Notes under the pieces: model-generated
Databases searched by the model: none
Told to the model about the DNA's origin: nothing
The model's input: only the letters and a program-made list of their open reading frames with translations
Shown: positions 2,462 to 22,111 of the stretch, piece after piece
Layout of the letters: the number at the start of each line of letters is the position of its first letter
Numbering within the stretch: position 1 is the stretch's first letter
Position numbers and translations under genes: made by a program
Source: an archaeon
Lineage (GTDB): Archaea > Iainarchaeota > Iainarchaeia > Iainarchaeales > Iainarchaeaceae
Assembly: GCA_005239615.1 (NCBI GenBank)
Contig: SBBR01000106.1
Span: 1 to 32,510 of the forward strand
Direction of reading: 5' to 3'
DNA length: 32,510 nt

Positions 2462-3484
2462 TCAATAATATTTAATCTTGTGAATCTTTTTGTAAACAAA
2501 GTAATTTTTTTCCTTGATGGTGTTTCCAAATATCGTGGACATCTCTTCCAGTATTTCTCGGAACTTTGAATGCCGTTCCGCCAAGAGCTCGGCCTCGAAG
2601 TCTGCATATCCGATTGTTTCGTTCACGTAAATGATGTTAGGATGAGCGTGGGCGTAACTCATTATCTCTTTGTACCTTGACCTGTCCTTTAGCCAGAAAT
2701 TTATTTTGTAATAGGTGTATCCTAATTTATCCATGTTGAGCCTTACCCTGAAACCTTTGATTACCTGCAGTTTCAGGAGTTTTTTCAGGTTGTGCTTTAC
2801 AATCATCGGTGTTAGCCAGAGTTTTGCCGATATTTCAACAGTAGGCATCCGCGCATTCCCGGAGATTACCTTCAAAATCTTTTCTTGCGTCCCGGTTATT
2901 TCAATTTTGTTACCGAATCCGACTTCAACTGCCTTTTTTTCGAGCTTTTCTTTTGGCAAAACAAACGCATAGCTGAAATCGTAGACCTTCGTGTAAACGC
3001 ACACAAGATACTTCAGGATGTGCTTCTGATATTTTTCCATTAATCCAAGCCAGAACTCCCTGAATTTATAGGCATTTTTCACCCATAGGAGTACGCCGGC
3101 GTCCCACTCGCCTTCTATGCTTCCGACCCACCATGTGCTGTCGGCATTTATAAAAAAATCCATGATTTCTTTTTCCTTTTCAGGACTGATGTATTGCCAT
3201 TTCAGATAAACCCTGTAGCCTTCAAAGCCGAGGGCAGTGGTATCAACCACCGAGTAGAAGCCGAGGATTATTTCATCGTCAACCATCTTTTTTATCCTGT
3301 AACCCACGAGGTTCTTCTTTACCCTTATCTCCTTGGCTATTTCAGAGTTAGAGCGCCTAGAATTTCGGTCCAAAGCGTGAATAAGCAATTTATCCACATT
3401 ATCAACGGTGGCCTTATTTTCCCCGGATTGGAAGATTTCACCCATTTTAACCATTGTAGCTAAAAGGCAATATAAATATATCAT
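2462..3484 (-). CDS. Lrp/AsnC-like transcription regulator with two tandem winged-HTH modules
   Basis: Two HTH_AsnC-like segments: DKLLIHALDRNSRRSNSEIAKEIRVKKNLVGYRIKKM and EKILKVISGNARMPTVEISAKLWLTPMIVKHNLKKL. The region is A/T-rich. The start may be an internal Met (MVKMGE). Confidence 0.6.
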   Translation of the reverse strand: MIYLYCLLATMVKMGEIFQSGENKATVDNVDKLLIHALDRNSRRSNSEIAKEIRVKKNLVGYRIKKMVDDEIILGFYSVVDTTALGFEGYRVYLKWQYISPEKEKEIMDFFINADSTWWVGSIEGEWDAGVLLWVKNAYKFREFWLGLMEKYQKHILKYLVCVYTKVYDFSYAFVLPKEKLEKKAVEVGFGNKIEITGTQEKILKVISGNARMPTVEISAKLWLTPMIVKHNLKKLLKLQVIKGFRVRLNMDKLGYTYYKINFWLKDRSRYKEIMSYAHAHPNIIYVNETIGYADFEAELLAERHSKFREILEEMSTIFGNTIKEKNYFVYKKIHKIKYY

Positions 3485-3539
3485 TTTGACCGATTTTTAT
3501 TACTAAATTTAGATTAAGCTAATATGAAGCGTATGTCAT

Positions 3540-4554: not shown

Positions 4555-4864
4555 AATACACCGCGCCACGGTCACTGAATCGGACCTTAACTATGAAGGC
4601 AGCATTTCAATAGATTCTTCACTTATGAAAAGATCCGGCCTTGTGGAATTCGAAAAAGTCGAGGTGTGGAACATAACAAACGGGGAAAGGATAGAGACCT
4701 ATGCAATGGCCGCACCTGAAGGCTCGGGCACAATATGCCTGAACGGAGCAGCCGCCAGAAAATTCATGAAAGGGGACAAGATAATCATAAGTGCATTTGA
4801 AATTTCTGATTCACCAAACAAGCCAAGAATTGTGTTCGTGGACGAAAAAAATAGAGGGTTATGA
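4532..4864 (+). CDS. panD: Aspartate 1-decarboxylase, pyruvoyl-dependent (bacterial PanD type)
   Basis: LKSKIHRATVTESDLNYEGSISID contains the conserved self-processing Gly-Ser site. GTICLNGAAAR is also conserved. Confidence 0.9.
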   Translation: MKIFLKSKIHRATVTESDLNYEGSISIDSSLMKRSGLVEFEKVEVWNITNGERIETYAMAAPEGSGTICLNGAAARKFMKGDKIIISAFEISDSPNKPRIVFVDEKNRGL

Positions 4865-4979
4865 TTAACCCTTGTTTTTCTGCGATTTTTTCAACTCATT
4901 TTTGAAAATGCCTTATTTTGCCTTCTTTTTCCTTTTTCTCCTTGTATTTTCCTTCATTTTCTCAACTTTTTTCGGTCGC

Positions 4980-5210
4980 TTACGCTAGACATTTTTTTCG
5001 TTCGAGTGTGACTAGTTGGTAGAGGTTGTATGCGAATGCTTTGAACATTTCTTTGATGCTTACTCTTGCAAGCGTTTTTACTAAAGTACGTGCGCCATGA
5101 AAAGTGCGTTTGATTACCGAGAATGGTCGTTCTCCCGGAGCGCGAATTCTGCTGATTGATTTGTTCCTTTTTTGTTCTCCGCCATTCAATTTTCTTCCAC
5201 GCGTTGCCAA
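4980..5210 (-). mobile_element. Remnant of an IS5/IS4-like DDE transposase (C-terminal fragment only)
   Basis: The 76-aa ORF ...ISRIRAPGERPFSVIKRTFHGARTLVKTLARVSIKEMFKAFAYNLYQL matches the typical IS5-family C-terminus (R-x-VE-x-FG-x-IK...R-x-RGL-x-K...NL). The DDE core is missing. A stop codon lies immediately upstream of the fragment. Confidence 0.55.
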
Positions 5211-6644: not shown

Positions 6645-6935
6645 TTGTACTGCAAGTCACATTCAGTTGGCAGCGATTCCGTGCTCGCGTGCTGCGACGA
6701 GGAAATCCTCGGGAAGACTCTGGAGGACAACGACCTCCGGGTCAATGTTTCAGAGGCTTATTACATGGGCAAAAAGGTCGGTGAAGGCGAAATGGCTTGG
6801 ATGCTCAGGGAGGCAAGTAGCATCAACCTCCTCGGTAGGAAAAGCGTCGGGGTGGCGCTGAAAGAGGGTTTAATAACCGAACGAGACGTAATCAGGTTAT
6901 GCGGTGTTGAGCACGCCGTGATAGTCAGGCTATAG
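6645..6935 (+). CDS. DUF424 (COG2412) family protein
   Basis: The pattern VLACCDEEILGKTLEDNDLRVNVSEAYYMG ... GVEHAVIV, together with its position directly after aIF2-beta, is typical for this archaeal family. Confidence 0.6.
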   Translation: MYCKSHSVGSDSVLACCDEEILGKTLEDNDLRVNVSEAYYMGKKVGEGEMAWMLREASSINLLGRKSVGVALKEGLITERDVIRLCGVEHAVIVRL

Positions 6936-9121: not shown

Positions 9122-9411
9122 CTAGACACCTTTTTATATATCCATGTTCCGTCCTGCAACAGGCATTAGAACTCCACATTGAATGCTTATCCGCAGCTGT
9201 AATTGATGAACTAAAAAAGAGGCGACTCCATAAAATAATGACAAATGTGGAAGTCGCTCTAGCGTAAAGAGCCAGATATTGGATTCAAACTCTTTAAGAA
9301 TTTCAGTTGTATGACAATTTCTTCCTCAAATAGGCATGGTAATTCTGGCAAAAAAAACCAGCGGTAGGTGCTGACGGGTTTAAAAATTATTCCAATTTTT
9401 TGGTGAATGAG

Positions 9412-11187
9412 ATGACAAAAGAGGCAAAGGAAAACGAAGAAGCCGTGCAGGCGTCTACAGAGGGCAAGGCGGAGAAGGGTCTCACCGCGGAGGAAATCGC
9501 GAAGGAGTTCAAGGAGCACTCGGTCGCGGAGTTCTTCAAGAAGAACATGCAGATGCTTGGCCTAACTGGCAAAATCAAGACCCTTACGACCATTGTGCAC
9601 GAGTATACCACCAATTCACTTGACGCCTGCGAGGAAGCAAAGATTCTGCCGGACATCGAAATCCAGATTAAGGAACTTGGAGAAGAGTACTACGAAGTCA
9701 CGGCGAAGGACAACGGCCCGGGCCTCACAAAAGAAACTGTAGGGAAAGCGCTCGGAAAAATCTTGGCCGGAACGAAGTTCCACAGGATGGTACAGATGCG
9801 TGGGCAACAAGGTATCGGCGCTTCTGGGGTCACCATGCTCTCCCAAATCACAACCGGAAAGGTAGTGCAGGTCATTACTGGCACGGGAAAGGGAAAACCA
9901 ATTAGCCTTGACATTACAATAGACCCGAAGAACAACGAACCGAAGATCGCGAACCTTACAGAGGTGAACAAGGACTTCAAGGGCACGATGATAAGGGCGA
10001 AATTCAAGGGTGTTAAGTACGTTAACTCCGAGCAGGCGCCCCTCGAATACCTTAGGAGGACGGCAATCGCGAACCCGCACGCGCAGATAACGCTGATAGA
10101 ACCATCCGGCGAGAAAATAGTGTTCAAGCGCACGCACAGGGACATTCCAGCGCGGCCCATGGAGATGAAGCCCCACCCGAAGGGAGTGAAGGTGGACGAG
10201 ATGGTAACACTAGCAAAGTACTCCAGCGAAAGGAAGGTCTCGAGCTTCCTGAAAGGCAACTTCGACAGGCTCGGCGACAAGGCGATAGAGGAACTCGTGA
10301 AGGCAGTACACTTCGACCTGAACAAGGACCCAAAGCACCTTTCTTGGGAGGAAGCGGAGGAAGTGGTGAACCAGTTCAGAAAAATGGATTTTATAGCGCC
10401 GCGCACGGACGGCCTCATACCAATAGGAGAGGCGCAGATAAGGAAGAGCCTTGAGAGTATAGTGAAGCCGGAGTTCATTTCAGTGGTCACGAGGAAGCCC
10501 TCGGTGTACAGCGGCGGCTTCCCCTTTCAGATAGAGGCTGGCATTGCCTACGGCGGGGAAGCCGGCAGAATGGGTGAGACGAACGAGGAGGGCCAGCAGC
10601 TGAGGAAAATAGAGATAATGAGGTTCGCGAACAGGGCCCCGTTGCTCTTCGACACAGGAGGTTGTGCAATCACGAAGGCCGTGCAGAGCATAGACTGGAA
10701 GAGGTACGGCATGAAGGATTACGAGAACGCGCCCCTCACTATCTTCGTGAACCTTATCTCCGTGCACATACCATACACCAGCGCCGGCAAGCAGGCGATA
10801 AGTGATGAGGAGGAAATAATGGAGGAGCTTCGCCTCGCGATGATGGACACAGGAAGGAAGATTTACACGTTTATAGGCCACCAGAGGAGGCAGGCGGAGA
10901 AGGAAGCGAAGAGGCGCATGTACTATAAGTACGCAACCGAAGTCGCGATTGCCGTTGCCGAGTTGACGCACAGGAATAAGAAGGAAATCGAGGAGGAGCT
11001 CCACGCGCTGGTCCTCAAGCACCTCAAGATGGAGGAACAGAAGGAGAAGCAGGCAGAACCCAAAGGCGAGATGAGTGAAGAGGAAATTGAAAAGGAGTAC
11101 GAGAAGCGTATGGAAAGGGAAAAAAAAGAAAAGGAAAAGAAGGGAAAGAAAGGTAAGAAGGCCGCGGTGGGGGCGGAAGAGGAGTGA
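9412..11187 (+). CDS. top6B: DNA topoisomerase VI subunit B
   Basis: GHKL ATPase N-terminus (AEFFKKNMQMLG, TIVHEYTTNSLDACEE, DNGPGL, GQQGIGASG). The ATG at 9412 is preferred over the TTG at 9400. The C-terminal ~60 aa form a K/E-rich tail. Confidence 0.9.
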   Translation: MTKEAKENEEAVQASTEGKAEKGLTAEEIAKEFKEHSVAEFFKKNMQMLGLTGKIKTLTTIVHEYTTNSLDACEEAKILPDIEIQIKELGEEYYEVTAKDNGPGLTKETVGKALGKILAGTKFHRMVQMRGQQGIGASGVTMLSQITTGKVVQVITGTGKGKPISLDITIDPKNNEPKIANLTEVNKDFKGTMIRAKFKGVKYVNSEQAPLEYLRRTAIANPHAQITLIEPSGEKIVFKRTHRDIPARPMEMKPHPKGVKVDEMVTLAKYSSERKVSSFLKGNFDRLGDKAIEELVKAVHFDLNKDPKHLSWEEAEEVVNQFRKMDFIAPRTDGLIPIGEAQIRKSLESIVKPEFISVVTRKPSVYSGGFPFQIEAGIAYGGEAGRMGETNEEGQQLRKIEIMRFANRAPLLFDTGGCAITKAVQSIDWKRYGMKDYENAPLTIFVNLISVHIPYTSAGKQAISDEEEIMEELRLAMMDTGRKIYTFIGHQRRQAEKEAKRRMYYKYATEVAIAVAELTHRNKKEIEEELHALVLKHLKMEEQKEKQAEPKGEMSEEEIEKEYEKRMEREKKEKEKKGKKGKKAAVGAEEE

Positions 11188-11219
11188 GCTAGGCACAGGC
11201 ATTCAGGAGTTTGGTTTTT

Positions 11220-12332
11220 ATGGCTAAGGAAGGAAAGCACTACGCAAAGGACTCGGAAGTCGTCGAGAAGCTTGAGAACATAGGGAAAGAAATACTCAAG
11301 CAGATAGAATCCCAAAAGAACCCGAGTTACAACATACCCATCCGGACGCTCGGGAACATCTTCTTTGACCAGAAAAGCGGGACGATAAAACTCGGGGACA
11401 AGACATCTGACAGGCAGTTCCTGAACGTCGCACACAGCAGGAAGTTTATGCAGACGGTGCTCGTCGCCGCCGAAATCCGTAAGGTAATAGAGCAGAAGGC
11501 CACAGTGAGCATCCGTGACCTCTACTACGCGCTCAAGCACACAATCGAGGGAACGCAGGAGAACACTTTCGAAGAGCAAAGTGAATCAGATCCTGTGATC
11601 GAGGACATTGAGGCAAGCCTCGACCTTCTTAGGGAGGAGCTGCACCTCGCAGCATCAGCCAAGGGCATAATTGCGGGCGATGTCCAGTTACGCGACGGCA
11701 GCGACAGCATTGACCTCACCAAAATGGGCTCGGGAGGCTGGAGCGTGCCCTCAAATGTGGAACCGGAGAATATAGAGTTCAAGAAGGTGAATGCCGAGTA
11801 CGTGCTATTCATAGAGAAGGATGCAGTGTGGAGAAGGTTCAACGAGGACCAGTACTGGAAGAAGCACAAGTGCATTATCCTCACTGGCAGGGGCCAGCCT
11901 GGGAGGGGAGAAAGGAGGCTTGCTCAGAGGTTCAACAAGGAATACGACCTGCCACTGTATGTGCTCACAGATGCAGACCCATGGGGGATGTACATTTACT
12001 CTGTCATAAAACAGGGCTCAATTTCGCTCTCCTACTCGGAAGAAAAGCTGGCGACCCCAAAGGCGAAGTTCCTCGGCCTCACTACATTGGATGTGGAGAA
12101 GTTCAAGATTCCGAAGGAAGTCACGATAAAGCTCAACGCGCTTGATGTGAAGAGGCTCAAGGAGATGGAAAGCTACGAGTGGTTCCAGAAGAAGGAATGG
12201 AAGCACGAGTTCAGCAACATGAAGGAGAAGGCTGTGAAGCTTGAGCTAGAAGCGCTGAGCAAGAAGGGCATAAGGTTCATCACCGAGGAGTATGTCCCCC
12301 AGAAGATAAAGAACGAGGAATTTTTACCGTAA
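11220..12332 (+). CDS. top6A: DNA topoisomerase VI subunit A (Spo11 homologue)
   Basis: Contains IRDLYYALKH (catalytic Tyr region), YVLFIEKDAVW, the Toprim TGRGQPGRGERR and DADPWGMYIY. An AGGAG lies 10 nt upstream of the ATG at 11220. Confidence 0.9.
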   Translation: MAKEGKHYAKDSEVVEKLENIGKEILKQIESQKNPSYNIPIRTLGNIFFDQKSGTIKLGDKTSDRQFLNVAHSRKFMQTVLVAAEIRKVIEQKATVSIRDLYYALKHTIEGTQENTFEEQSESDPVIEDIEASLDLLREELHLAASAKGIIAGDVQLRDGSDSIDLTKMGSGGWSVPSNVEPENIEFKKVNAEYVLFIEKDAVWRRFNEDQYWKKHKCIILTGRGQPGRGERRLAQRFNKEYDLPLYVLTDADPWGMYIYSVIKQGSISLSYSEEKLATPKAKFLGLTTLDVEKFKIPKEVTIKLNALDVKRLKEMESYEWFQKKEWKHEFSNMKEKAVKLELEALSKKGIRFITEEYVPQKIKNEEFLP

Positions 12333-17349: not shown

Positions 17350-17895
17350 CTAATCACCAGAATGTTTCTTGTAGTGCAGCAGCACCGTTCCATACTTGTT
17401 CAGCTTTTTCAACGAAACCAGGTTAAAGCCGAGGCCCCTCGCGCCACCGCCTTTCACAACACCATCAAACAACGGGAGCCCAGCCCCGAATACGAGCGGT
17501 TCTATTGTTAGGAAAATCTCGTCCGCGAGGCCAGCCTGCAGGAAATAAGTGAAGGTTTTTGTACCCCCAAGGACTGCGATTTTTTTGTAGCCGTGGCTTG
17601 TGCAATAATCCCTGATGCTAACTTCTACCGGATTTAGGTATGCAGGCCCAGCGCCTATTTCGACTGCCCCGGTCACATTATGGGTGAAAACGATGCAGTT
17701 GCGCCTTGAAAGTGGCGCTTTTGCGACCTCGTAGGTGTTCCGCCCTACAACCACCGCATCGCTCCTGTCGAGCGTTTTGTGCAGGAAATCCTTGTCCTCC
17801 TTCGAGGACCAGCCTGTCATGTGCCTTGCATGGCGGGCAATCCTGCCATCAATTGTGCAGACCGCTATCAGCGAAAATACAGGCCTTTTTCTCAC
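17350..17895 (-). CDS. RibD C-terminal domain / DHFR-like reductase (archaeal diaminohydroxyphosphoribosylaminopyrimidine reductase-like)
   Basis: Contains FSLIAVCTIDGRIA, VVVGRNTYE and IAVLGGTKTFTYFLQAGLADEIFLTIEPLVFG. I prefer the GTG at 17895. The track ORF extends to a TTG at 18018, but that poly-K N-terminus is encoded by the repeat array next to the tRNA. Confidence 0.7.
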   Translation of the reverse strand: MRKRPVFSLIAVCTIDGRIARHARHMTGWSSKEDKDFLHKTLDRSDAVVVGRNTYEVAKAPLSRRNCIVFTHNVTGAVEIGAGPAYLNPVEVSIRDYCTSHGYKKIAVLGGTKTFTYFLQAGLADEIFLTIEPLVFGAGLPLFDGVVKGGGARGLGFNLVSLKKLNKYGTVLLHYKKHSGD

Positions 17896-17953
17896 GGGGC
17901 AGATTTGGGCAGGATGCACCTTAAAACCATTGCGAGTCACTATGAATTCCCAG

Positions 17954-18302
17954 CTTTTTCTTTTCTTAAGCCTTTCGTTTCTTTTTCTTTTCGTCAACGT
18001 TTTCTTTTTCTTTCCCAAAGAAAAAGAAAAGGTTGCTGGGGTGTCAGAGCGGCTATGTACCCGCCTGCAGTAACCCTTTTCTTTCTCCTGTGGAGAAAGA
18101 AAAGGGTCCTTGCAGAATCGAAAGATTCTGCGAGGCCAAGCAAACCTAAAGGTTTGCCGGGTAGCGGAAAAGAAAGGTGTTTGCGCCTATGGCGCAGGGT
18201 TCTTTTTCTTTTTCGCAAAGGTTTTTCTTTTCCTTGCAGAGCAAGGCTCTGCGAGGCCTCGTCCCGAAAGGGACAAGGTCTTCCCAAGAAAAAGAAAAAG
18301 GT
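17954..18302. repeat. Cluster of about 10 copies, in both orientations, of a 12-15-nt CTTTTTCTTTT / AAAAGAAAAAG motif flanking and filling the tRNA-Cys intron
   Basis: Pyrimidine copies lie near 17954, 17977, 18000, 18074, 18199 and 18220. Purine copies lie near 18018, 18092, 18166 and 18286. 18000-18013 and 18017-18030 form a perfect 14-bp hairpin with a CCC loop just 5' of the tRNA. Confidence 0.85.
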
Positions 18303-18345
18303 TTGCGGTGAGCGGGCTAGGAGGGTTCGACTCCCTCCCCCAGCT
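18035..18345 (+). tRNA. tRNA-Cys(GCA) interrupted by a 240-nt intron at the canonical 37/38 position. Exons are 18035..18070 and 18311..18345; no CCA is encoded.
   Basis: Acceptor GCTGGGG/CCCCAGC with discriminator T73. D-loop AGCGGCTA. Anticodon stem CCCGC/GCGGG with loop CT-GCA-G|..|A. Variable loop CTAG. T-arm GAGGG-TTCGACT-CCCTC. The BHB has a 4-bp helix CTGC(18065-68)/GCGG(18305-08) flanked by 3-nt bulges AG|T and TG|A. The D-stem is weak (TCAG/TGTA). Confidence 0.8.
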
Positions 18346-18407
18346 TGTATTACTCACGCTACAGTATTATTCACCCATTTTTAAATAATTATGAGTAATA
18401 CAATAGC

Positions 18408-19337
18408 ATGGCTTACATGGCAAAATTCAAAAGGAATGGCAAAATCTATTTCTATCTCGTTGAAAACATCCCGCTCGGCGGAGGCAAAAGAAGGCAGATA
18501 AGGGAGTACATTGGCGACAAGCAGCCATCGGAATCAAAGCTCCAAATCCTGATTGCAGAGTTCGAAAAAAAAGTGGAAAAAGAAACCGTCAAGCTCCATG
18601 GCCGCCACTACCTCACAAATGAAGAAATAAAGGAAATTGATGAAATCAATGCGCGATTCTGGCAAAGATACAAAAAATTAAATCCGACTGTACAGGAACA
18701 ATTCGACCAGAACTTCGTAATGGCTTTCGTTTACAACACCAACTCAATAGAAGGGTCCACTCTAAGCCCAAAAGAGGTCGAACCGCTTCTCAGCGAGAAC
18801 ATCGCTCCGAACAAGCCGCTTGATGACGTGCTCGAAGCAAAGGCTGCGCAAAAAACTCTGAATTTTGCCAAAGAGTACAAAGGAGAACTCACGCAGGAAT
18901 TTATAGCGCAAATCCACGAAATGTACTTCAAGGACACCAAACCTATGATAGCCGGAAAATACAAGACTCACCAAAACATGGCCAGGGGCTCGGACTTCGA
19001 GACAACACTGCCTCACTTAGTAATAACAGACATGAAAAACTTCATCAAAGAATACCCTCAGCAAAAAAATGGACTCCACCCACTTGAGCTGTCAGCATGG
19101 GCACACTGGAAACTTATGAAAATACACCCATTCCAGGTCGGAAACGGAAGGACGGCTAGAATACTGATGAACTACATCCTGCACATCAACGGCTATGCGA
19201 TGATAGACATCAAAACCAAGGAGAAACAGCAATACTTCAACGCGCTGGAGAAATGCCACTACAACAATAATGCAAAGGCTTTGGCAACAAGACTAGTCAG
19301 GCGATTCAGGAAACAATACAAAAATGCGCTGGACTAA
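18408..19337 (+). CDS. fic: Fic-domain protein (AMPylase-type), class II with internal inhibitory helix
   Basis: Fic motif HPFQVGNGRTARILMNY. The upstream motif TNSIEG fits the inhibitory (S/T)xxxE(G/N). The N-terminus KFKRNGKIYFYLVENIPLGGGKRRQIREYIG is typical of archaeal Fic proteins. Confidence 0.85.
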   Translation: MAYMAKFKRNGKIYFYLVENIPLGGGKRRQIREYIGDKQPSESKLQILIAEFEKKVEKETVKLHGRHYLTNEEIKEIDEINARFWQRYKKLNPTVQEQFDQNFVMAFVYNTNSIEGSTLSPKEVEPLLSENIAPNKPLDDVLEAKAAQKTLNFAKEYKGELTQEFIAQIHEMYFKDTKPMIAGKYKTHQNMARGSDFETTLPHLVITDMKNFIKEYPQQKNGLHPLELSAWAHWKLMKIHPFQVGNGRTARILMNYILHINGYAMIDIKTKEKQQYFNALEKCHYNNNAKALATRLVRRFRKQYKNALD

Positions 19338-19355
19338 AACGCTCTCAGCCGCAAA

Positions 19356-19610
19356 ATGGTTTATAGCAAACCGCCCAAAAATACCGAAAAACTTTTGCGG
19401 TTTGCTATAAGGCAAGGAAAGCTAGGATGCCAAAAATCACTTGCAGAAGCCAAAGTGGACCTGAAGGACCCCTCACACATCGCAAACAGGCTCTACGGTT
19501 ACGGGCCAGACATTTCGGACAAGGAACTCGAACAATTTGGAACAGCTCTGCTCGAACCAAATGCCCCACCAAAAGAAGCCTCTCGGAACTGCATGAAAAA
19601 AATGGGGTAA
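19356..19610 (+). CDS. Hypothetical protein
   Basis: 84-aa ORF directly after fic in the same A/T-richer patch. No recognisable motif. Confidence 0.3.
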   Translation: MVYSKPPKNTEKLLRFAIRQGKLGCQKSLAEAKVDLKDPSHIANRLYGYGPDISDKELEQFGTALLEPNAPPKEASRNCMKKMG

Positions 19611-19728
19611 ACCGAGGTTTTGCGGACATTGCCTTTTATAATTTATCTGTGTAGGAATAGCTCTAGGAAAAGCCAATATTCAGGCAGGAAACGTAATTTA
19701 GTCTTAAAGGGTTTTTGGGGGGTTTTGG

Positions 19729-21768
19729 TTGATTGAACTTGATTTCGTGCTGGTCATAGGCCTGCTCTCGCTTGCCGTGGCAGCCTTCCTCGCAAGGGGC
19801 GTATGGAAGCAGGACGAGGGCACGGAGAGGATGCGCGAGGTCGCGGGATTCATCCGCGAAGGGGCGAAAGGCTTCATGAAGAGGCAGTACGCAACTATTG
19901 CAGGCCTGACAATTGTTTTCGCTGTGGCGCTTTTCGTGCTATTCACCTTTTTCGAGCCGGGCAGGGCGTTCACTTCGGCTATCTGCTTTGTAGTGGGCGC
20001 CGCGTTCTCAGCCCTCGCGGGAATAGTCAGCATGCTGATTGCGGTGAACACCAACAGCAGGACGGCATCCTCTGCGGCAACAGGTATTTCCGCCGCGCTG
20101 AGGACAGCATTCAGGGGAGGTGCGTCCGCCGGTATCATAATCGTTGCGCTTGCGCTTCTGGGGATCGCGCTGATTTACATGGCCTTCGGTCAGGATCCGC
20201 AGGAAACGCCCTTCATAATAGTAGGGTATGCATTCGGTGCATCTTTCGTCGCGCTTTTCGCCCAGCTCGGGGGCGGCATCTACACCAAGGCTGCTGACGT
20301 TGGTGCAGATTTGGTCGGGAAAATCGAGGCTAACATTCCGGAAGACGACCCGCGCAACCCCGCGGTGATTGCAGACCTTGTCGGGGACAATGTTGGGGAC
20401 TGCGCTGGAAGGGGCGCTGACATCTTCGAGAGCACGGCCGCCGAGAACATAGGCGCGATGATTCTGGGCGTGGCAATATTCTCGGCGCTTGGCACAAACG
20501 GCGTGCTCTTTCCGCTTGTGGTGAGCGCACTTGGACTGCTCGCATCCATTGCAGGCATCTTCGCGGTGAACATGAAGGAAGACGGCAGCCCAATGGCTGC
20601 AATGAACCTGGGGTTCTGGGTAACCTCCGGGATTTCTGTCGTGCTGCTTTACATCGCCACTATGGTGATGCTGGGCAGCACCTGGCTTTTCGCCGCGGGA
20701 ACTGTGGGAATCGTTACAGCCATTGCATTTGTTTACATCACGGAGCACTACACCGAGCACAAGTTCAGGCCTGTAATGAGGATAGTTGAAGGTTCGAGGA
20801 GTGGCCCCGCGACGAACTTCCTTTCTGGCTTTGCGCTGGCTCTCGAGTCAACAGGCCCTACAGTCATAGTAGTCTCCGCTGCCCTTCTGGCTTCATTTTA
20901 CTTCGGCGTACAGTCAGACGTGCCAAACGGCGGCCTGTTCGGCACGGCCATGGCGACGATGGGCATGCTCATGACAGCAGCCTACATCCTAGCAATGGAC
21001 ATGTACGGCCCCATCACCGACAATGCAGCCGGCATAGCGCAGTTTGCTGGGGCAAAGGGTGAGAGCCGCAGGAGGCTCGACAAGCTTGATTCTGTGGGAA
21101 ATACAACCAAGGCGCTCACCAAGGGATATGCAATCGGCAGCGCATCACTTGCGGCATTTCTGCTCTTCTCCGCCTACATGACCGAGGTAGCAAAGCTCAC
21201 AGGAAAGCCCTTTGACGTCGTGAACATAGCGCAAGTGCATGTATTTGTAGGCGCGGCAATGGGGGCGCTTCTTGTTTTCCTCTTCACTTCGCGCGCGGTA
21301 CGCGGGGTGAGCAAGACCGCTGAATATATCATTGCGGAAGTCAGGAGGCAGTTCGCCGACAAGGCCATAATGAGCGGCAAAAAGAAGCCTGATTATGCGA
21401 AGTGCGTTGACATAACCACGCAGGGAGCGCTCAGGAACATGGTCCTGCCAGGCCTGCTCGTGCTCATGATTCCGGTGGTTATAGGGCTGCTCCTCAAGGC
21501 GGAAGCTGTTGCCGCGCTGCTGATTGTAGGTACGATAGTCGGCATACTCTTCGCGACCTTCCTGAATAATGCAGGCGGGGCGTGGGACAACGCCAAGAAG
21601 TACATAGAGGAAGGATTTGAAGGGGGAAAGGGAAGCGATGCCCACAAGGCTGCGGTTGTAGGGGACACAATTGGCGACCCGTTCAAGGACACCGCTGGGC
21701 CGAGCATCCATGTGCTCATAAAGCTCCTTGCGACCATCACGCTCGTGCTTGCGCCGCTGTTCATCTGA
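19729..21768 (+). CDS. hppA: Membrane-bound proton-translocating pyrophosphatase, K+-independent type
   Basis: Contains GGGIYTKAADVGADLVGK, DNVGDCAGRGADIFES and GDTIGDPFKDTAGPS. GNTTKA, with Lys rather than Ala, marks the K+-independent subfamily. TTG start. Confidence 0.9.
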   Translation: MIELDFVLVIGLLSLAVAAFLARGVWKQDEGTERMREVAGFIREGAKGFMKRQYATIAGLTIVFAVALFVLFTFFEPGRAFTSAICFVVGAAFSALAGIVSMLIAVNTNSRTASSAATGISAALRTAFRGGASAGIIIVALALLGIALIYMAFGQDPQETPFIIVGYAFGASFVALFAQLGGGIYTKAADVGADLVGKIEANIPEDDPRNPAVIADLVGDNVGDCAGRGADIFESTAAENIGAMILGVAIFSALGTNGVLFPLVVSALGLLASIAGIFAVNMKEDGSPMAAMNLGFWVTSGISVVLLYIATMVMLGSTWLFAAGTVGIVTAIAFVYITEHYTEHKFRPVMRIVEGSRSGPATNFLSGFALALESTGPTVIVVSAALLASFYFGVQSDVPNGGLFGTAMATMGMLMTAAYILAMDMYGPITDNAAGIAQFAGAKGESRRRLDKLDSVGNTTKALTKGYAIGSASLAAFLLFSAYMTEVAKLTGKPFDVVNIAQVHVFVGAAMGALLVFLFTSRAVRGVSKTAEYIIAEVRRQFADKAIMSGKKKPDYAKCVDITTQGALRNMVLPGLLVLMIPVVIGLLLKAEAVAALLIVGTIVGILFATFLNNAGGAWDNAKKYIEEGFEGGKGSDAHKAAVVGDTIGDPFKDTAGPSIHVLIKLLATITLVLAPLFI

Positions 21769-21881: not shown

Positions 21882-22004
21882 TTACTTTCTCTTACCTTTC
21901 TTTTTCTTCTTTCCGCGGCCCTTCTTGTGCCCAGACTTGCCGACCTTCTCGAGCTTCAGGCCGAGCTTCTCAAGGGTCTTCCCGATTCTGTCTAGGTCTA
22001 TCAT
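21882..22004 (-). CDS. Hypothetical 40-aa highly basic protein (below the ORF-track cutoff)
   Basis: Hand translation gives MIDLDRIGKTLEKLGLKLEKVGKSGHKKGRGKKKKKGKRK*. A GGTGAGGT Shine-Dalgarno-like sequence lies 6-7 nt upstream of the ATG (22004-22002). Confidence 0.35.
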   Translation of the reverse strand: MIDLDRIGKTLEKLGLKLEKVGKSGHKKGRGKKKKKGKRK

Positions 22005-22111
22005 GGTTGAACCTCACCAAAACGATTTGAGAGATACAACACTTTACCCATATATAAAGGTAGTGGATTTTACGCCGAAGTGTTTTTAACTGCAAAAAAC
22101 ACAAGCGTTAC

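Follow-up and report, generated by a model that had tools for sequence, protein, structure and literature searches.

Archaeal tRNA introns have been reviewed at 11-129 nt, with medians of 12-25 nt, and eukaryotic ones at 6-133 nt (PMC4090602). Elsewhere archaeal tRNA introns are given as 'less than 100 nt' (PMC4033280), and those of Haloferax measure 31-103 nt (PMC7714728). In the DNA analysed here, contig SBBR01000106.1 (the whole 32.5-kb stretch is referred to as the window), a gene for tRNA-Cys(GCA) is interrupted by 240 nt directly 3′ of position 37. To judge from the sequence of the locus and of its orthologues, this is very probably a functional gene with a protein-spliced archaeal intron at the canonical 37/38 position. 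The intron is of record-class length, the extreme of a known kind and about twice as long as the longest archaeal tRNA intron in reviews. Its exceptional length, claimed in the original prediction, holds against either of the reviewed archaeal ranges.

The interrupted tRNA-Cys gene

When the two exons (Table 1) were joined, ARAGORN folded them into a 71-nt tRNA-Cys(GCA) with perfect acceptor (7 bp), anticodon (5 bp) and T (5 bp) stems and a weak D stem of 3 bp. The boundaries and sequences of exons and intron are exactly as they had been read in the original prediction. Exon 2 starts with AGCGGG and ends with CCCCAGCT; it supplies the 3′ strands of the anticodon and acceptor stems, the first followed by the variable loop CUAG and the T arm, the second by the discriminator U73 (T73 in the DNA, at 18345). 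After splicing the anticodon loop reads CUGCAGA. The same loop is present in an intron-less orthologue on contig L083 (L-numbers denote contigs from other assemblies and datasets), and the product of the window gene is therefore tRNA-Cys(GCA). The tRNA of L083 scores 48.9 bits against the Rfam tRNA family (RF00005; threshold 29) and differs from the joined window exons at four positions, two of which form one compensatory pair. The predicted identity is thus borne out by the fold of the joined exons and by the loop of the intron-less orthologue. The likeness to E. coli tRNA-Cys that had been drawn is irrelevant, the host being an archaeon.

Default ARAGORN and an Rfam search of the window both missed the gene. 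ARAGORN with intron search, which had been proposed as a check, accepted the joined exons and called one gene in the entire 32.5 kb, exactly at this locus; it made no call in 40 dinucleotide shuffles of the window. In this mode the program places the 240-nt intron two bases further 5′, hence its label Ser(GCU). A tRNA-Ser(GCU) is excluded by the variable loop of 4 nt and by the anticodon loop of the intron-less orthologue. An independent Logan contig, L001, matches the window without a difference across the final 55 nt of the intron, exon 2 and the gene that follows. Logan run SRR6943130 contains the locus.

Orthologues were reached through homologues of the left neighbour, a DHFR-like (RibD_C) protein, on syntenic contigs from six other assemblies. 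The comparison of the locus in relatives, suggested together with the prediction, recovered the same tRNA-Cys gene in all six, with an intron of variable length at the same site: 0 nt in L083/84/85, 81 nt in L086, 101 nt in L092, 123 nt in L087, 127 nt in L089, 143 nt in L093 and 240 nt in the window. The canonical 37/38 position claimed for the intron is confirmed by this identity of site in every intron-bearing orthologue. In five of the six relatives the gene lies beside a block of DHFR-like, HAD, HAD, metallophosphatase, CoA-ligase and Topo VI genes; in the sixth, L092, it lies a few kb off, past the pyrophosphatase gene.

In all seven spliced sequences every pair of the acceptor, anticodon and T stems is formed (100%), with two both-sided compensatory changes (A7-U66 to G7-C66 in the window, C28-G42 to U28-A42 in L092) and three wobble changes. 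Only 7 of 500 shuffles matched the observed stem pairing and compensation. Because the stems are fully paired and carry compensatory changes, the exon pattern is taken as the signature of a gene under selection and not of a pseudogene. A pseudogene or decaying tRNA gene, with the long insert as its disruption, is highly improbable. The very long insert and the weak D stem (U10.U25 and G13.A22) would agree with decay, but the same D stem is present in every orthologue, including the intron-less one with its high Rfam score. Moreover, the window-specific G7 is compensated by C66 and the junction helix is intact.

The predicted splice junction takes the form of a bulge-helix-bulge (BHB). Its central helix of 4 bp, CUGC (18065-68) with GCGG (18305-08), contains one U.G pair and lies between the 3-nt bulges AGU and UGA; helix h is the anticodon stem, perfect in the window. 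Cleavage by the archaeal splicing endonuclease falls 3′ of the second nucleotide of a bulge, which gives the two predicted cut sites of Table 1. The junction helix CUGC/GC(A/G)G is paired in all six intron-bearing genes (five of five aligned introns, and L086). Its 5′ strand belongs to the fixed anticodon loop, while the intron strand varies between GCAG and GCGG, each of which pairs with U33 (a U-A/U.G exchange).

Folds were computed on the intron together with the anticodon arm. Without constraints, the minimum-energy fold of each of the six intron-bearing genes contains the anticodon stem, the 3-nt bulge at the 3′ splice site and the 4-bp helix. In the free fold of the window gene the central helix is prolonged across A36 and G37, and the strict two-bulge form, with the 5′ site also bulged, costs +1.3 kcal/mol (1.3-4.8 across the six genes). 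The outer helix h′, AACC (18072-75) with GGUU (18300-03), requires U18304 to be unpaired and lies +5.3 kcal/mol above the free fold; among the relatives this helix is contiguous in L092 (AACC/GGUU) and 3 bp long in L086. The window junction is thus a near-canonical BHB, not a textbook one. Of the earlier description the helix CUGC/GCGG and the bulges AG/U and UG/A (the slash marking the cut) stand, but 'textbook' was generous, given the unpaired U18304 in the outer helix.

For a protein-spliced intron the following course would be expected. The hairpins of the intron would draw both splice sites together into the BHB, the tRNA splicing endonuclease (EndA) would cut at the two predicted sites, and a ligase of the RtcB type would join the exons, with the excised intron probably circularised. 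The endonuclease would read the junction alone and not the length of the loop. The same enzyme processes BHB motifs around ~1.7-3 kb of rRNA (PMC7714728); loop length is therefore not limiting, and a loop of 240 nt is mechanistically unproblematic. The extra length would be passenger material: those stretches of the precursor that do not reach the mature tRNA, namely the intron and perhaps the 5′ flank, may have gathered copies of hairpin and three-tract modules specific to the lineage.

Several points weigh against this explanation. The outer BHB helix is broken by one unpaired U and the central helix holds a U.G pair, and a strictly specific endonuclease might cut the window junction poorly. 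The full 240 nt come from a single assembly, L001 breaking off within the intron at 18256. The window intron also contains three runs of five U (U5 runs; 18203-07, 18209-13 and 18222-26), and up to four are present in L089 and L093. They are confined to introns with the three-tract element described below and are lacking in the homologous introns that do not carry it. Such runs resemble archaeal intrinsic termination signals and might cut read-through to exon 2.

Composition of the intron and the three-tract element

Table 1. Features of the tRNA-Cys locus in the window, in order of position.
Feature	Position	Strand	Description
5′-flank three-tract element	17978-18032	+	Y1 17978-17992 (TTTCTTTTTCTTTTC), loop GTCAACG, Y2 18000-18016, R 18017-18032 (AAAGAAAAAGAAAAGG)
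tRNA-Cys exon 1	18035-18070	+	36 nt, positions 1-37, ends CCUGCAG (anticodon GCA, then G37); from ARAGORN, orthologue alignment A2 and pair counts
BHB 5′ half	18065-18071	+	CUGC, 5′ strand of the central helix, then bulge A36 G37/U; predicted cut 18070/18071
Intron	18071-18310	+	240 nt, non-coding chain of hairpins
Hairpin P1	18072-18107	+	Ya 18074-18089 paired with Ra 18092-18106
Insertion 1	18108-18163	+	Hairpin CCUUGCAGAAUC-GAAA-GAUUCUGCGAGG, then hairpin GCAAACC-UAAA-GGUUUGC; gaps in all four homologous introns of alignment A3
GC hairpin UGCGCC-UAU-GGCGCA	18182-18200	+	Between R′ and Y1; also in L093; three both-sided changes (helix 7)
Sense three-tract copy	18200-18301	+	Y1 18200-18214, Y2 18222-18235, R 18286-18301
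Insertion 2	~18231-18281	+	In the Y2-R loop; hairpin CCUUGCAGAGC-AAG-GCUCUGCGAGG, then hairpin CCUCGUCCC-GAAA-GGGACAAGG
BHB 3′ half	18305-18311	+	GCGG, 3′ strand of the central helix, then bulge U G/A38; predicted cut 18310/18311
tRNA-Cys exon 2	18311-18345	+	35 nt, positions 38-73; from ARAGORN, alignment A2 and pair counts; same in L001

The precursor is strongly structured (fold z-score -11.3). An alignment of five introns (A3: window, L093, L089, L087 and L092) revealed a shared core consisting, in order, of hairpin P1, a purine tract R′, a small GC hairpin, the tracts Y1 and Y2, a purine tract R and the BHB strand; P1 and the linker plus R′ are kept in all four relatives. The window intron is a core of the 143-nt type to which two window-only insertions of ~50 nt have been added. 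Neither this modular make-up from repeats nor the kinship of part of the intron with the 5′ flank of the gene had been noticed in the original prediction. Both insertions contain a CCUUGCA...UGCGAGG hairpin followed by a second hairpin. In L092 the hairpin pair of insertion 1 is found again upstream of tRNA-Cys; in L086 the same region contains the second hairpin of insertion 2. Because of these copies, the inserted hairpins are putative movable or duplicating modules of the lineage.

Two-hairpin modules of ~50 nt, built as CCUUGCA..UGCGAGG plus CCUCG..CAAGG, were observed in the window intron and in the 5′ flanks of tRNA-Cys in L092 (~6740-6790) and L086 (~3463-3510). The stem bases are constant, and the tips vary with compensating changes. 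Possible 4-nt duplications (GGGT, TTCC) lie beside the window insertions.

It is very unlikely that the true intron is a core of ~140 nt and that one or both insertions stem from repeat modules mis-joined in assembly. Direct repeats are indeed present within the intron (TCCTTGCAGA twice, AAG.YTCTGCGAGGCC twice), and L001 ends just after such a repeat. These repeats, however, measure 10-16 nt, which is below the usual assembly k-mers, and in L001 insertion 2 is joined to the 3′ end of the intron in the same way. In addition, the same hairpin modules are present in relatives at the tRNA-Cys locus, and the insertions sit precisely in loops of the conserved core.

Neither a C box (RUGAUGA) nor a D box (CUGA) is present in the window intron, and among the five homologues a single CUGA was found, in L086. 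The lengths of the orthologue introns (81-240 nt) are not related by multiples of three and no reading frame is conserved. An intron hosting a C/D-box RNA and a coding intron were both rejected on these grounds; the motif scan and the comparison of lengths agree with the earlier claim that no credible open reading frame (ORF) and no C/D boxes are present.

Rfam, searched at the gathering thresholds and at E<=10, gave no family for the intron. The 32 weak matches were only chance microRNA or leader-like hairpins, with no group I or group II intron family among them. For bacterial tRNA group I introns the 37/38 position has been noted (PMC4033280). That the window intron is a self-splicing group I or II intron, as found in the anticodon loops of bacterial tRNAs, has a practically negligible probability. 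The length of ~240 nt, the place in the anticodon loop and the GNRA tetraloops recall the small group I introns of bacterial tRNAs. Besides the negative Rfam result, the 5′ exon ends in G and not in U, the orthologous introns of 81-143 nt share only the tract hairpins and no region resembling a catalytic core, and a conserved BHB is found in an archaeal host. A group I intron in particular was rejected for the missing Rfam core, the G at the end of the 5′ exon and the conserved BHB.

The gene is preceded, in the stretch 17954-18032, by an element of ~55 nt with three tracts, the pyrimidine tracts Y1 and Y2 and the purine tract R. Counted from tRNA +1, Y1 extends from -57 to -43, Y2 after a loop of ~7 nt from -35 to -19, and R after a short loop from -18 to -3, ending 2 nt before +1. 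The flank element was found in seven of seven orthologues at a fixed distance from +1, the intron-less one included. In its last ~105 nt (18200-18304) the window intron is paralogous to the ~57 nt that immediately precede +1, and the same flank-to-intron duplication is present in L087, L089 and L093. This sense copy ends 3 nt before the BHB helix begins its 3′ strand. P1 together with R′ (18166-18177) constitutes the element in antisense orientation (18074-18177), and the intron core looks like two outward-facing copies of the element, which would give terminal inverted repeats like those of a miniature inverted-repeat transposable element (MITE).

In L087, a degenerate second copy of nearly the whole intron, from AAACCC to ...AAAAAGGATGCGG, was observed in the 5′ flank of tRNA-Cys (4856-5018), and after it comes a faint likeness to the first part of exon 2. 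Such an arrangement points to a partial duplication of the tRNA-Cys gene in tandem at some time in the past.

The arrangement of two Y tracts and one R tract occurs 18 times in 0.25 Mb of related loci, 16 times with both matches, and three times in 2.28 Mb of unrelated loci, where one copy is good. This copy belongs to another archaeon (L004, 10078-10126, with the linker CGTTCAC; locus 10047-10228) and lies between the degenerate first ~29 nt of a tRNA-Val and the TATA box (10127-10138) of an intact tRNA-Val(GAC). The putative element family is linked to tRNA loci beyond tRNA-Cys. A further copy is found in the same genome as L093, on contig L095 (12252-12306), between an S-layer-like gene and an ORF of 203 aa, with no detected tRNA nearby; the corresponding place in L217 is without it. 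A pattern scan of IMG/VR for the element gave no match. Polypurine matches near the pyrophosphatase gene of the window were discarded, being the Lys-rich tail of a small conserved ORF and not copies of the element.

Y2 and R are complementary in the Watson-Crick sense, and Y1 is the mirror of Y2. In nine of ten copies Y1 matches R in parallel, T opposite A and C opposite G, over its full 11-16 nt, against 7-13 nt for the antiparallel alternative. Changes in run length and at the tract ends are shared by all three tracts: in L083 (4,5 vs 5,4), in L086 and L093 (CTC.../...CTC/GAG...) and in the intron of L087 (CTCTTTCTTTTT / TTTTTCTTTCTC / GAGAAAGAAAAA). This symmetry would fit an intramolecular U.A-U / C+.G-C triple helix.

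It is possible rather than probable that the element is a functional triplex module of this kind, folded from a single strand and placed a few nt ahead of two processing sites, the 5′ end of the tRNA and the 3′ splice site. Its role would be to stabilise or mark the leader and the intron once released, and it is compatible with a protein-spliced BHB intron. Such a module is suggested by the parallel match over the whole length, by the coupled changes, by the position of the three tracts on a single strand, with the order and polarity required for an intramolecular triplex, and by the frequency of good copies in related loci (16 per 0.25 Mb, against one per 2.28 Mb in the others). On the other hand, both orientations are present in the transcribed intron, and the antisense copy gives just a purine-motif triplex, which is weak in RNA. 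Y1 of the intron also pairs conventionally with R′ (helix 6, 96% paired). The tracts are of low complexity, and mirror and direct repeat differ at few positions. Finally, Y1 of the flank may lie outside the transcript: TATA-like boxes upstream of tRNA-Cys, recognised by eye in the letters, are located at 17963-72 (~-73 to -64) and at 17919-28 (~-116 to -107).

The start of the neighbouring DHFR-like gene is uncertain, as the call (196 aa) is at 17940 and homologues suggest a GTG at 17895. The choice of start settles whether the TATA-like CCTTAAAACC at 17919 is intergenic.

A bolder proposal is that the element is a selected module forming a triple strand, in RNA or in single-stranded DNA, which in this DPANN lineage is tied to tRNA processing sites and would be an archaeal counterpart of the triplex and tRNA-like arrangement of MALAT1. 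This seems doubtful. In its strongest form the element would be a terminator/promoter or end-protection cassette that turns the 3′ half into a unit handled on its own, and the gene an intermediate between an intron-containing and a split tRNA.

A gene split in cis would mean that the intron copy of the flank acts as terminator and promoter, and that the halves are made as two transcripts, one for the 5′ half with its end at the U5 runs and one for the 3′ half from G18305 onwards. Base pairs of the acceptor stem, of the anticodon stem and of CUGC/GCGG would bring together the halves, which would then be joined like the split tRNAs of Nanoarchaeum and Caldivirga. In agreement with this, the paralogy between flank and intron extends to the order R, GGUU(U) and then G (tRNA +1 or G18305) in both, the duplication is shared with L087, L089 and L093, and the U5 runs are limited to introns carrying the element. 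The tRNA-Val TATA box of the related archaeon is centred ~25 nt upstream of +1, which suggests near-leaderless tRNA transcription in the group. Nevertheless, such a split is quite unlikely. Judged by sequence, the intron copies lack a TATA-like box, and Y2, which lies at the TATA position, has no TA step, whereas promoters in the window are canonical, e.g. CCCATATATAAAGG at 22047. The introns of L092 and L086 lack the element, so that these genes must be transcribed as one unit, the halves are contiguous with a BHB predicted in cis, and a copy of the element is also found away from tRNA genes (L095).

Host, neighbouring genes and wider searches

The window encodes Topo VI A/B, aIF2-beta, aRF1, diphthamide synthase, L10e, RIO kinase, TruD and a H+-pyrophosphatase, and the host is therefore an archaeon. 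The gene for its EndA lies outside the window. The nearest named relatives of aRF1 are those of 'Candidatus Diapherotrites archaeon' (~69% identity), closer matches being proteins from metagenome-assembled genomes or metagenomes, and the host is treated as a presumptive, uncultured DPANN-type (Diapherotrites-like) archaeon.

The best matches of the H+-pyrophosphatase (19729-21768) among GTDB species genomes are 57-63% identical and belong to Methanoregulaceae and assorted bacteria, the top one (63%) to Methanoregula, which suggests a history of horizontal transfer and also that the GTDB representatives do not include the host genome. No tRNA-Cys was found near the pyrophosphatase matches in GTDB genomes, one of which is L004. 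Downstream of the pyrophosphatase gene, on the minus strand, a small conserved ORF (~21885-22005) encodes MIDLDRIGKTLEKLGLKLEKVGKSGHKKGRGKKKKKGKRK; it has homologues at the same place in L083, L094, L095 and L096 and is accompanied by the canonical promoter at 22047 mentioned above.

The DNA 3′ of tRNA-Cys differs between relatives. It contains a Fic gene in the window (18346-19700) and in L083 (8799-9731), a tyrosine integrase in L086 (2129-3070) and PIN/MazE in L087 (3823-4477); the 3′ end of tRNA-Cys appears to be an integration hot spot. In the window, a perfect inverted repeat of 12 bp, TTGTATTACTCA / TGAGTAATACAA (18345-18403), surrounds a TATA-like TTTTTAAATA just upstream of the Fic-domain gene (18408-19337). 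The Fic gene of L083 is preceded by the same layout with diverged sequence, and the repeat looks operator-like. The Topo VI A/B genes of L086 (9080-14198) and L089 (5516-10887) contain LAGLIDADG inteins, with products of 904-1114 aa, and those of the window (9400-12332) are free of inteins.

A degenerate pattern of the 3′ exon had a single match in JGI metagenomes, L082, an unrelated locus of tRNA 3′-end fragments. A hairpin-base pattern had at least 120 matches in IMG/VR, all attributable to chance for a gapped pattern of 16 bases, and a blastn search with the pre-tRNA found nothing in plasmids or phages. Exact-protein look-up returned one contig of 1.2 kb for the Fic neighbour and no record for the DHFR-like protein of the window. 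Look-ups based on aRF1 led back to genomes that had been sampled before; the other contigs obtained from them contained no additional tRNA gene.

Comparison with known systems

Since default ARAGORN and Rfam miss the gene and ARAGORN in intron mode labels it Ser(GCU), genomes of this lineage would seem to be without tRNA-Cys. Incomplete tRNA sets in DPANN archaea are suspected to hide undetected disrupted genes (PMC5829648). The locus would also extend the known size of protein-spliced tRNA introns, from reviewed ceilings of 129 nt in archaea and 133 nt in eukaryotes to 240 nt, and the graded series of its orthologues from 0 to 240 nt shows intron growth by the insertion of modules. The duplicated flank element, its triplex-compatible symmetry and the U5 runs could make it a system for studying how archaeal RNA polymerase and splicing handle long structured introns. 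It bears as well on the question whether split tRNA genes can arise from introns.

In MALAT1 an expression and nuclear retention element (ENE), an A-rich tract, an RNase P site and the tRNA-like mascRNA follow one another (PMC8457004, PMC6379651). The three-tract element resembles the triplex of MALAT1 and MEN-beta in its sequence of U-rich tract, loop, U-rich tract, loop and A-rich tract, with the 5′ end of a tRNA a few nt away. Of the two U-rich tracts, one is complementary to the purine tract in the Watson-Crick sense and the other is Hoogsteen-compatible with it, and C stands opposite G as in C+.G-C. The likeness is one of sequence symmetry only; the present element differs in its archaeal host, in A runs interrupted by G and in the occurrence of antisense copies.

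The transposed or mobile tRNA introns of Thermoproteales, reportedly described by Fujishima et al. in 2010, share with the present locus the presence of related intron modules at several places, suggesting movement or duplication of intron material. Here, in contrast, the extra copies are mostly in the 5′ flank of the same locus, with one at an intergenic site and one in the flank of a tRNA-Val; copies of the element or modules as introns of other tRNA genes were not seen among the loci examined.

Split and tri-split tRNAs, as in Nanoarchaeum equitans and Caldivirga maquilingensis, have in common with the window gene the join at 37/38 and a BHB formed from the sequences flanking the halves, and the flank element stands, in one copy each, before both halves of the window gene. 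In the window, however, the halves are contiguous on one strand and 240 nt apart, and separate transcription is judged unlikely.

The tRNA-Trp intron of Haloferax volcanii (103 nt, a box C/D guide RNA) is likewise a long BHB intron at 37/38 of a euryarchaeal tRNA, and its length is explained by its passenger function (PMC7714728, PMC4090602). The window intron differs from it in having no C/D box and no evident guide function.

The closest likeness is to the 37/38 introns of archaeal tRNAs removed by EndA and RtcB. The window intron differs from these in its 240 nt, in a modular interior built of repeats and in an outer helix broken by one unpaired base. It shares with them the position one nt 3′ of the anticodon, the non-coding character, a presence and length that vary among close relatives, and the junction itself, with 3-nt bulges on either side of a 4-bp helix formed by loop bases 32-35 and the 3′ end of the intron.

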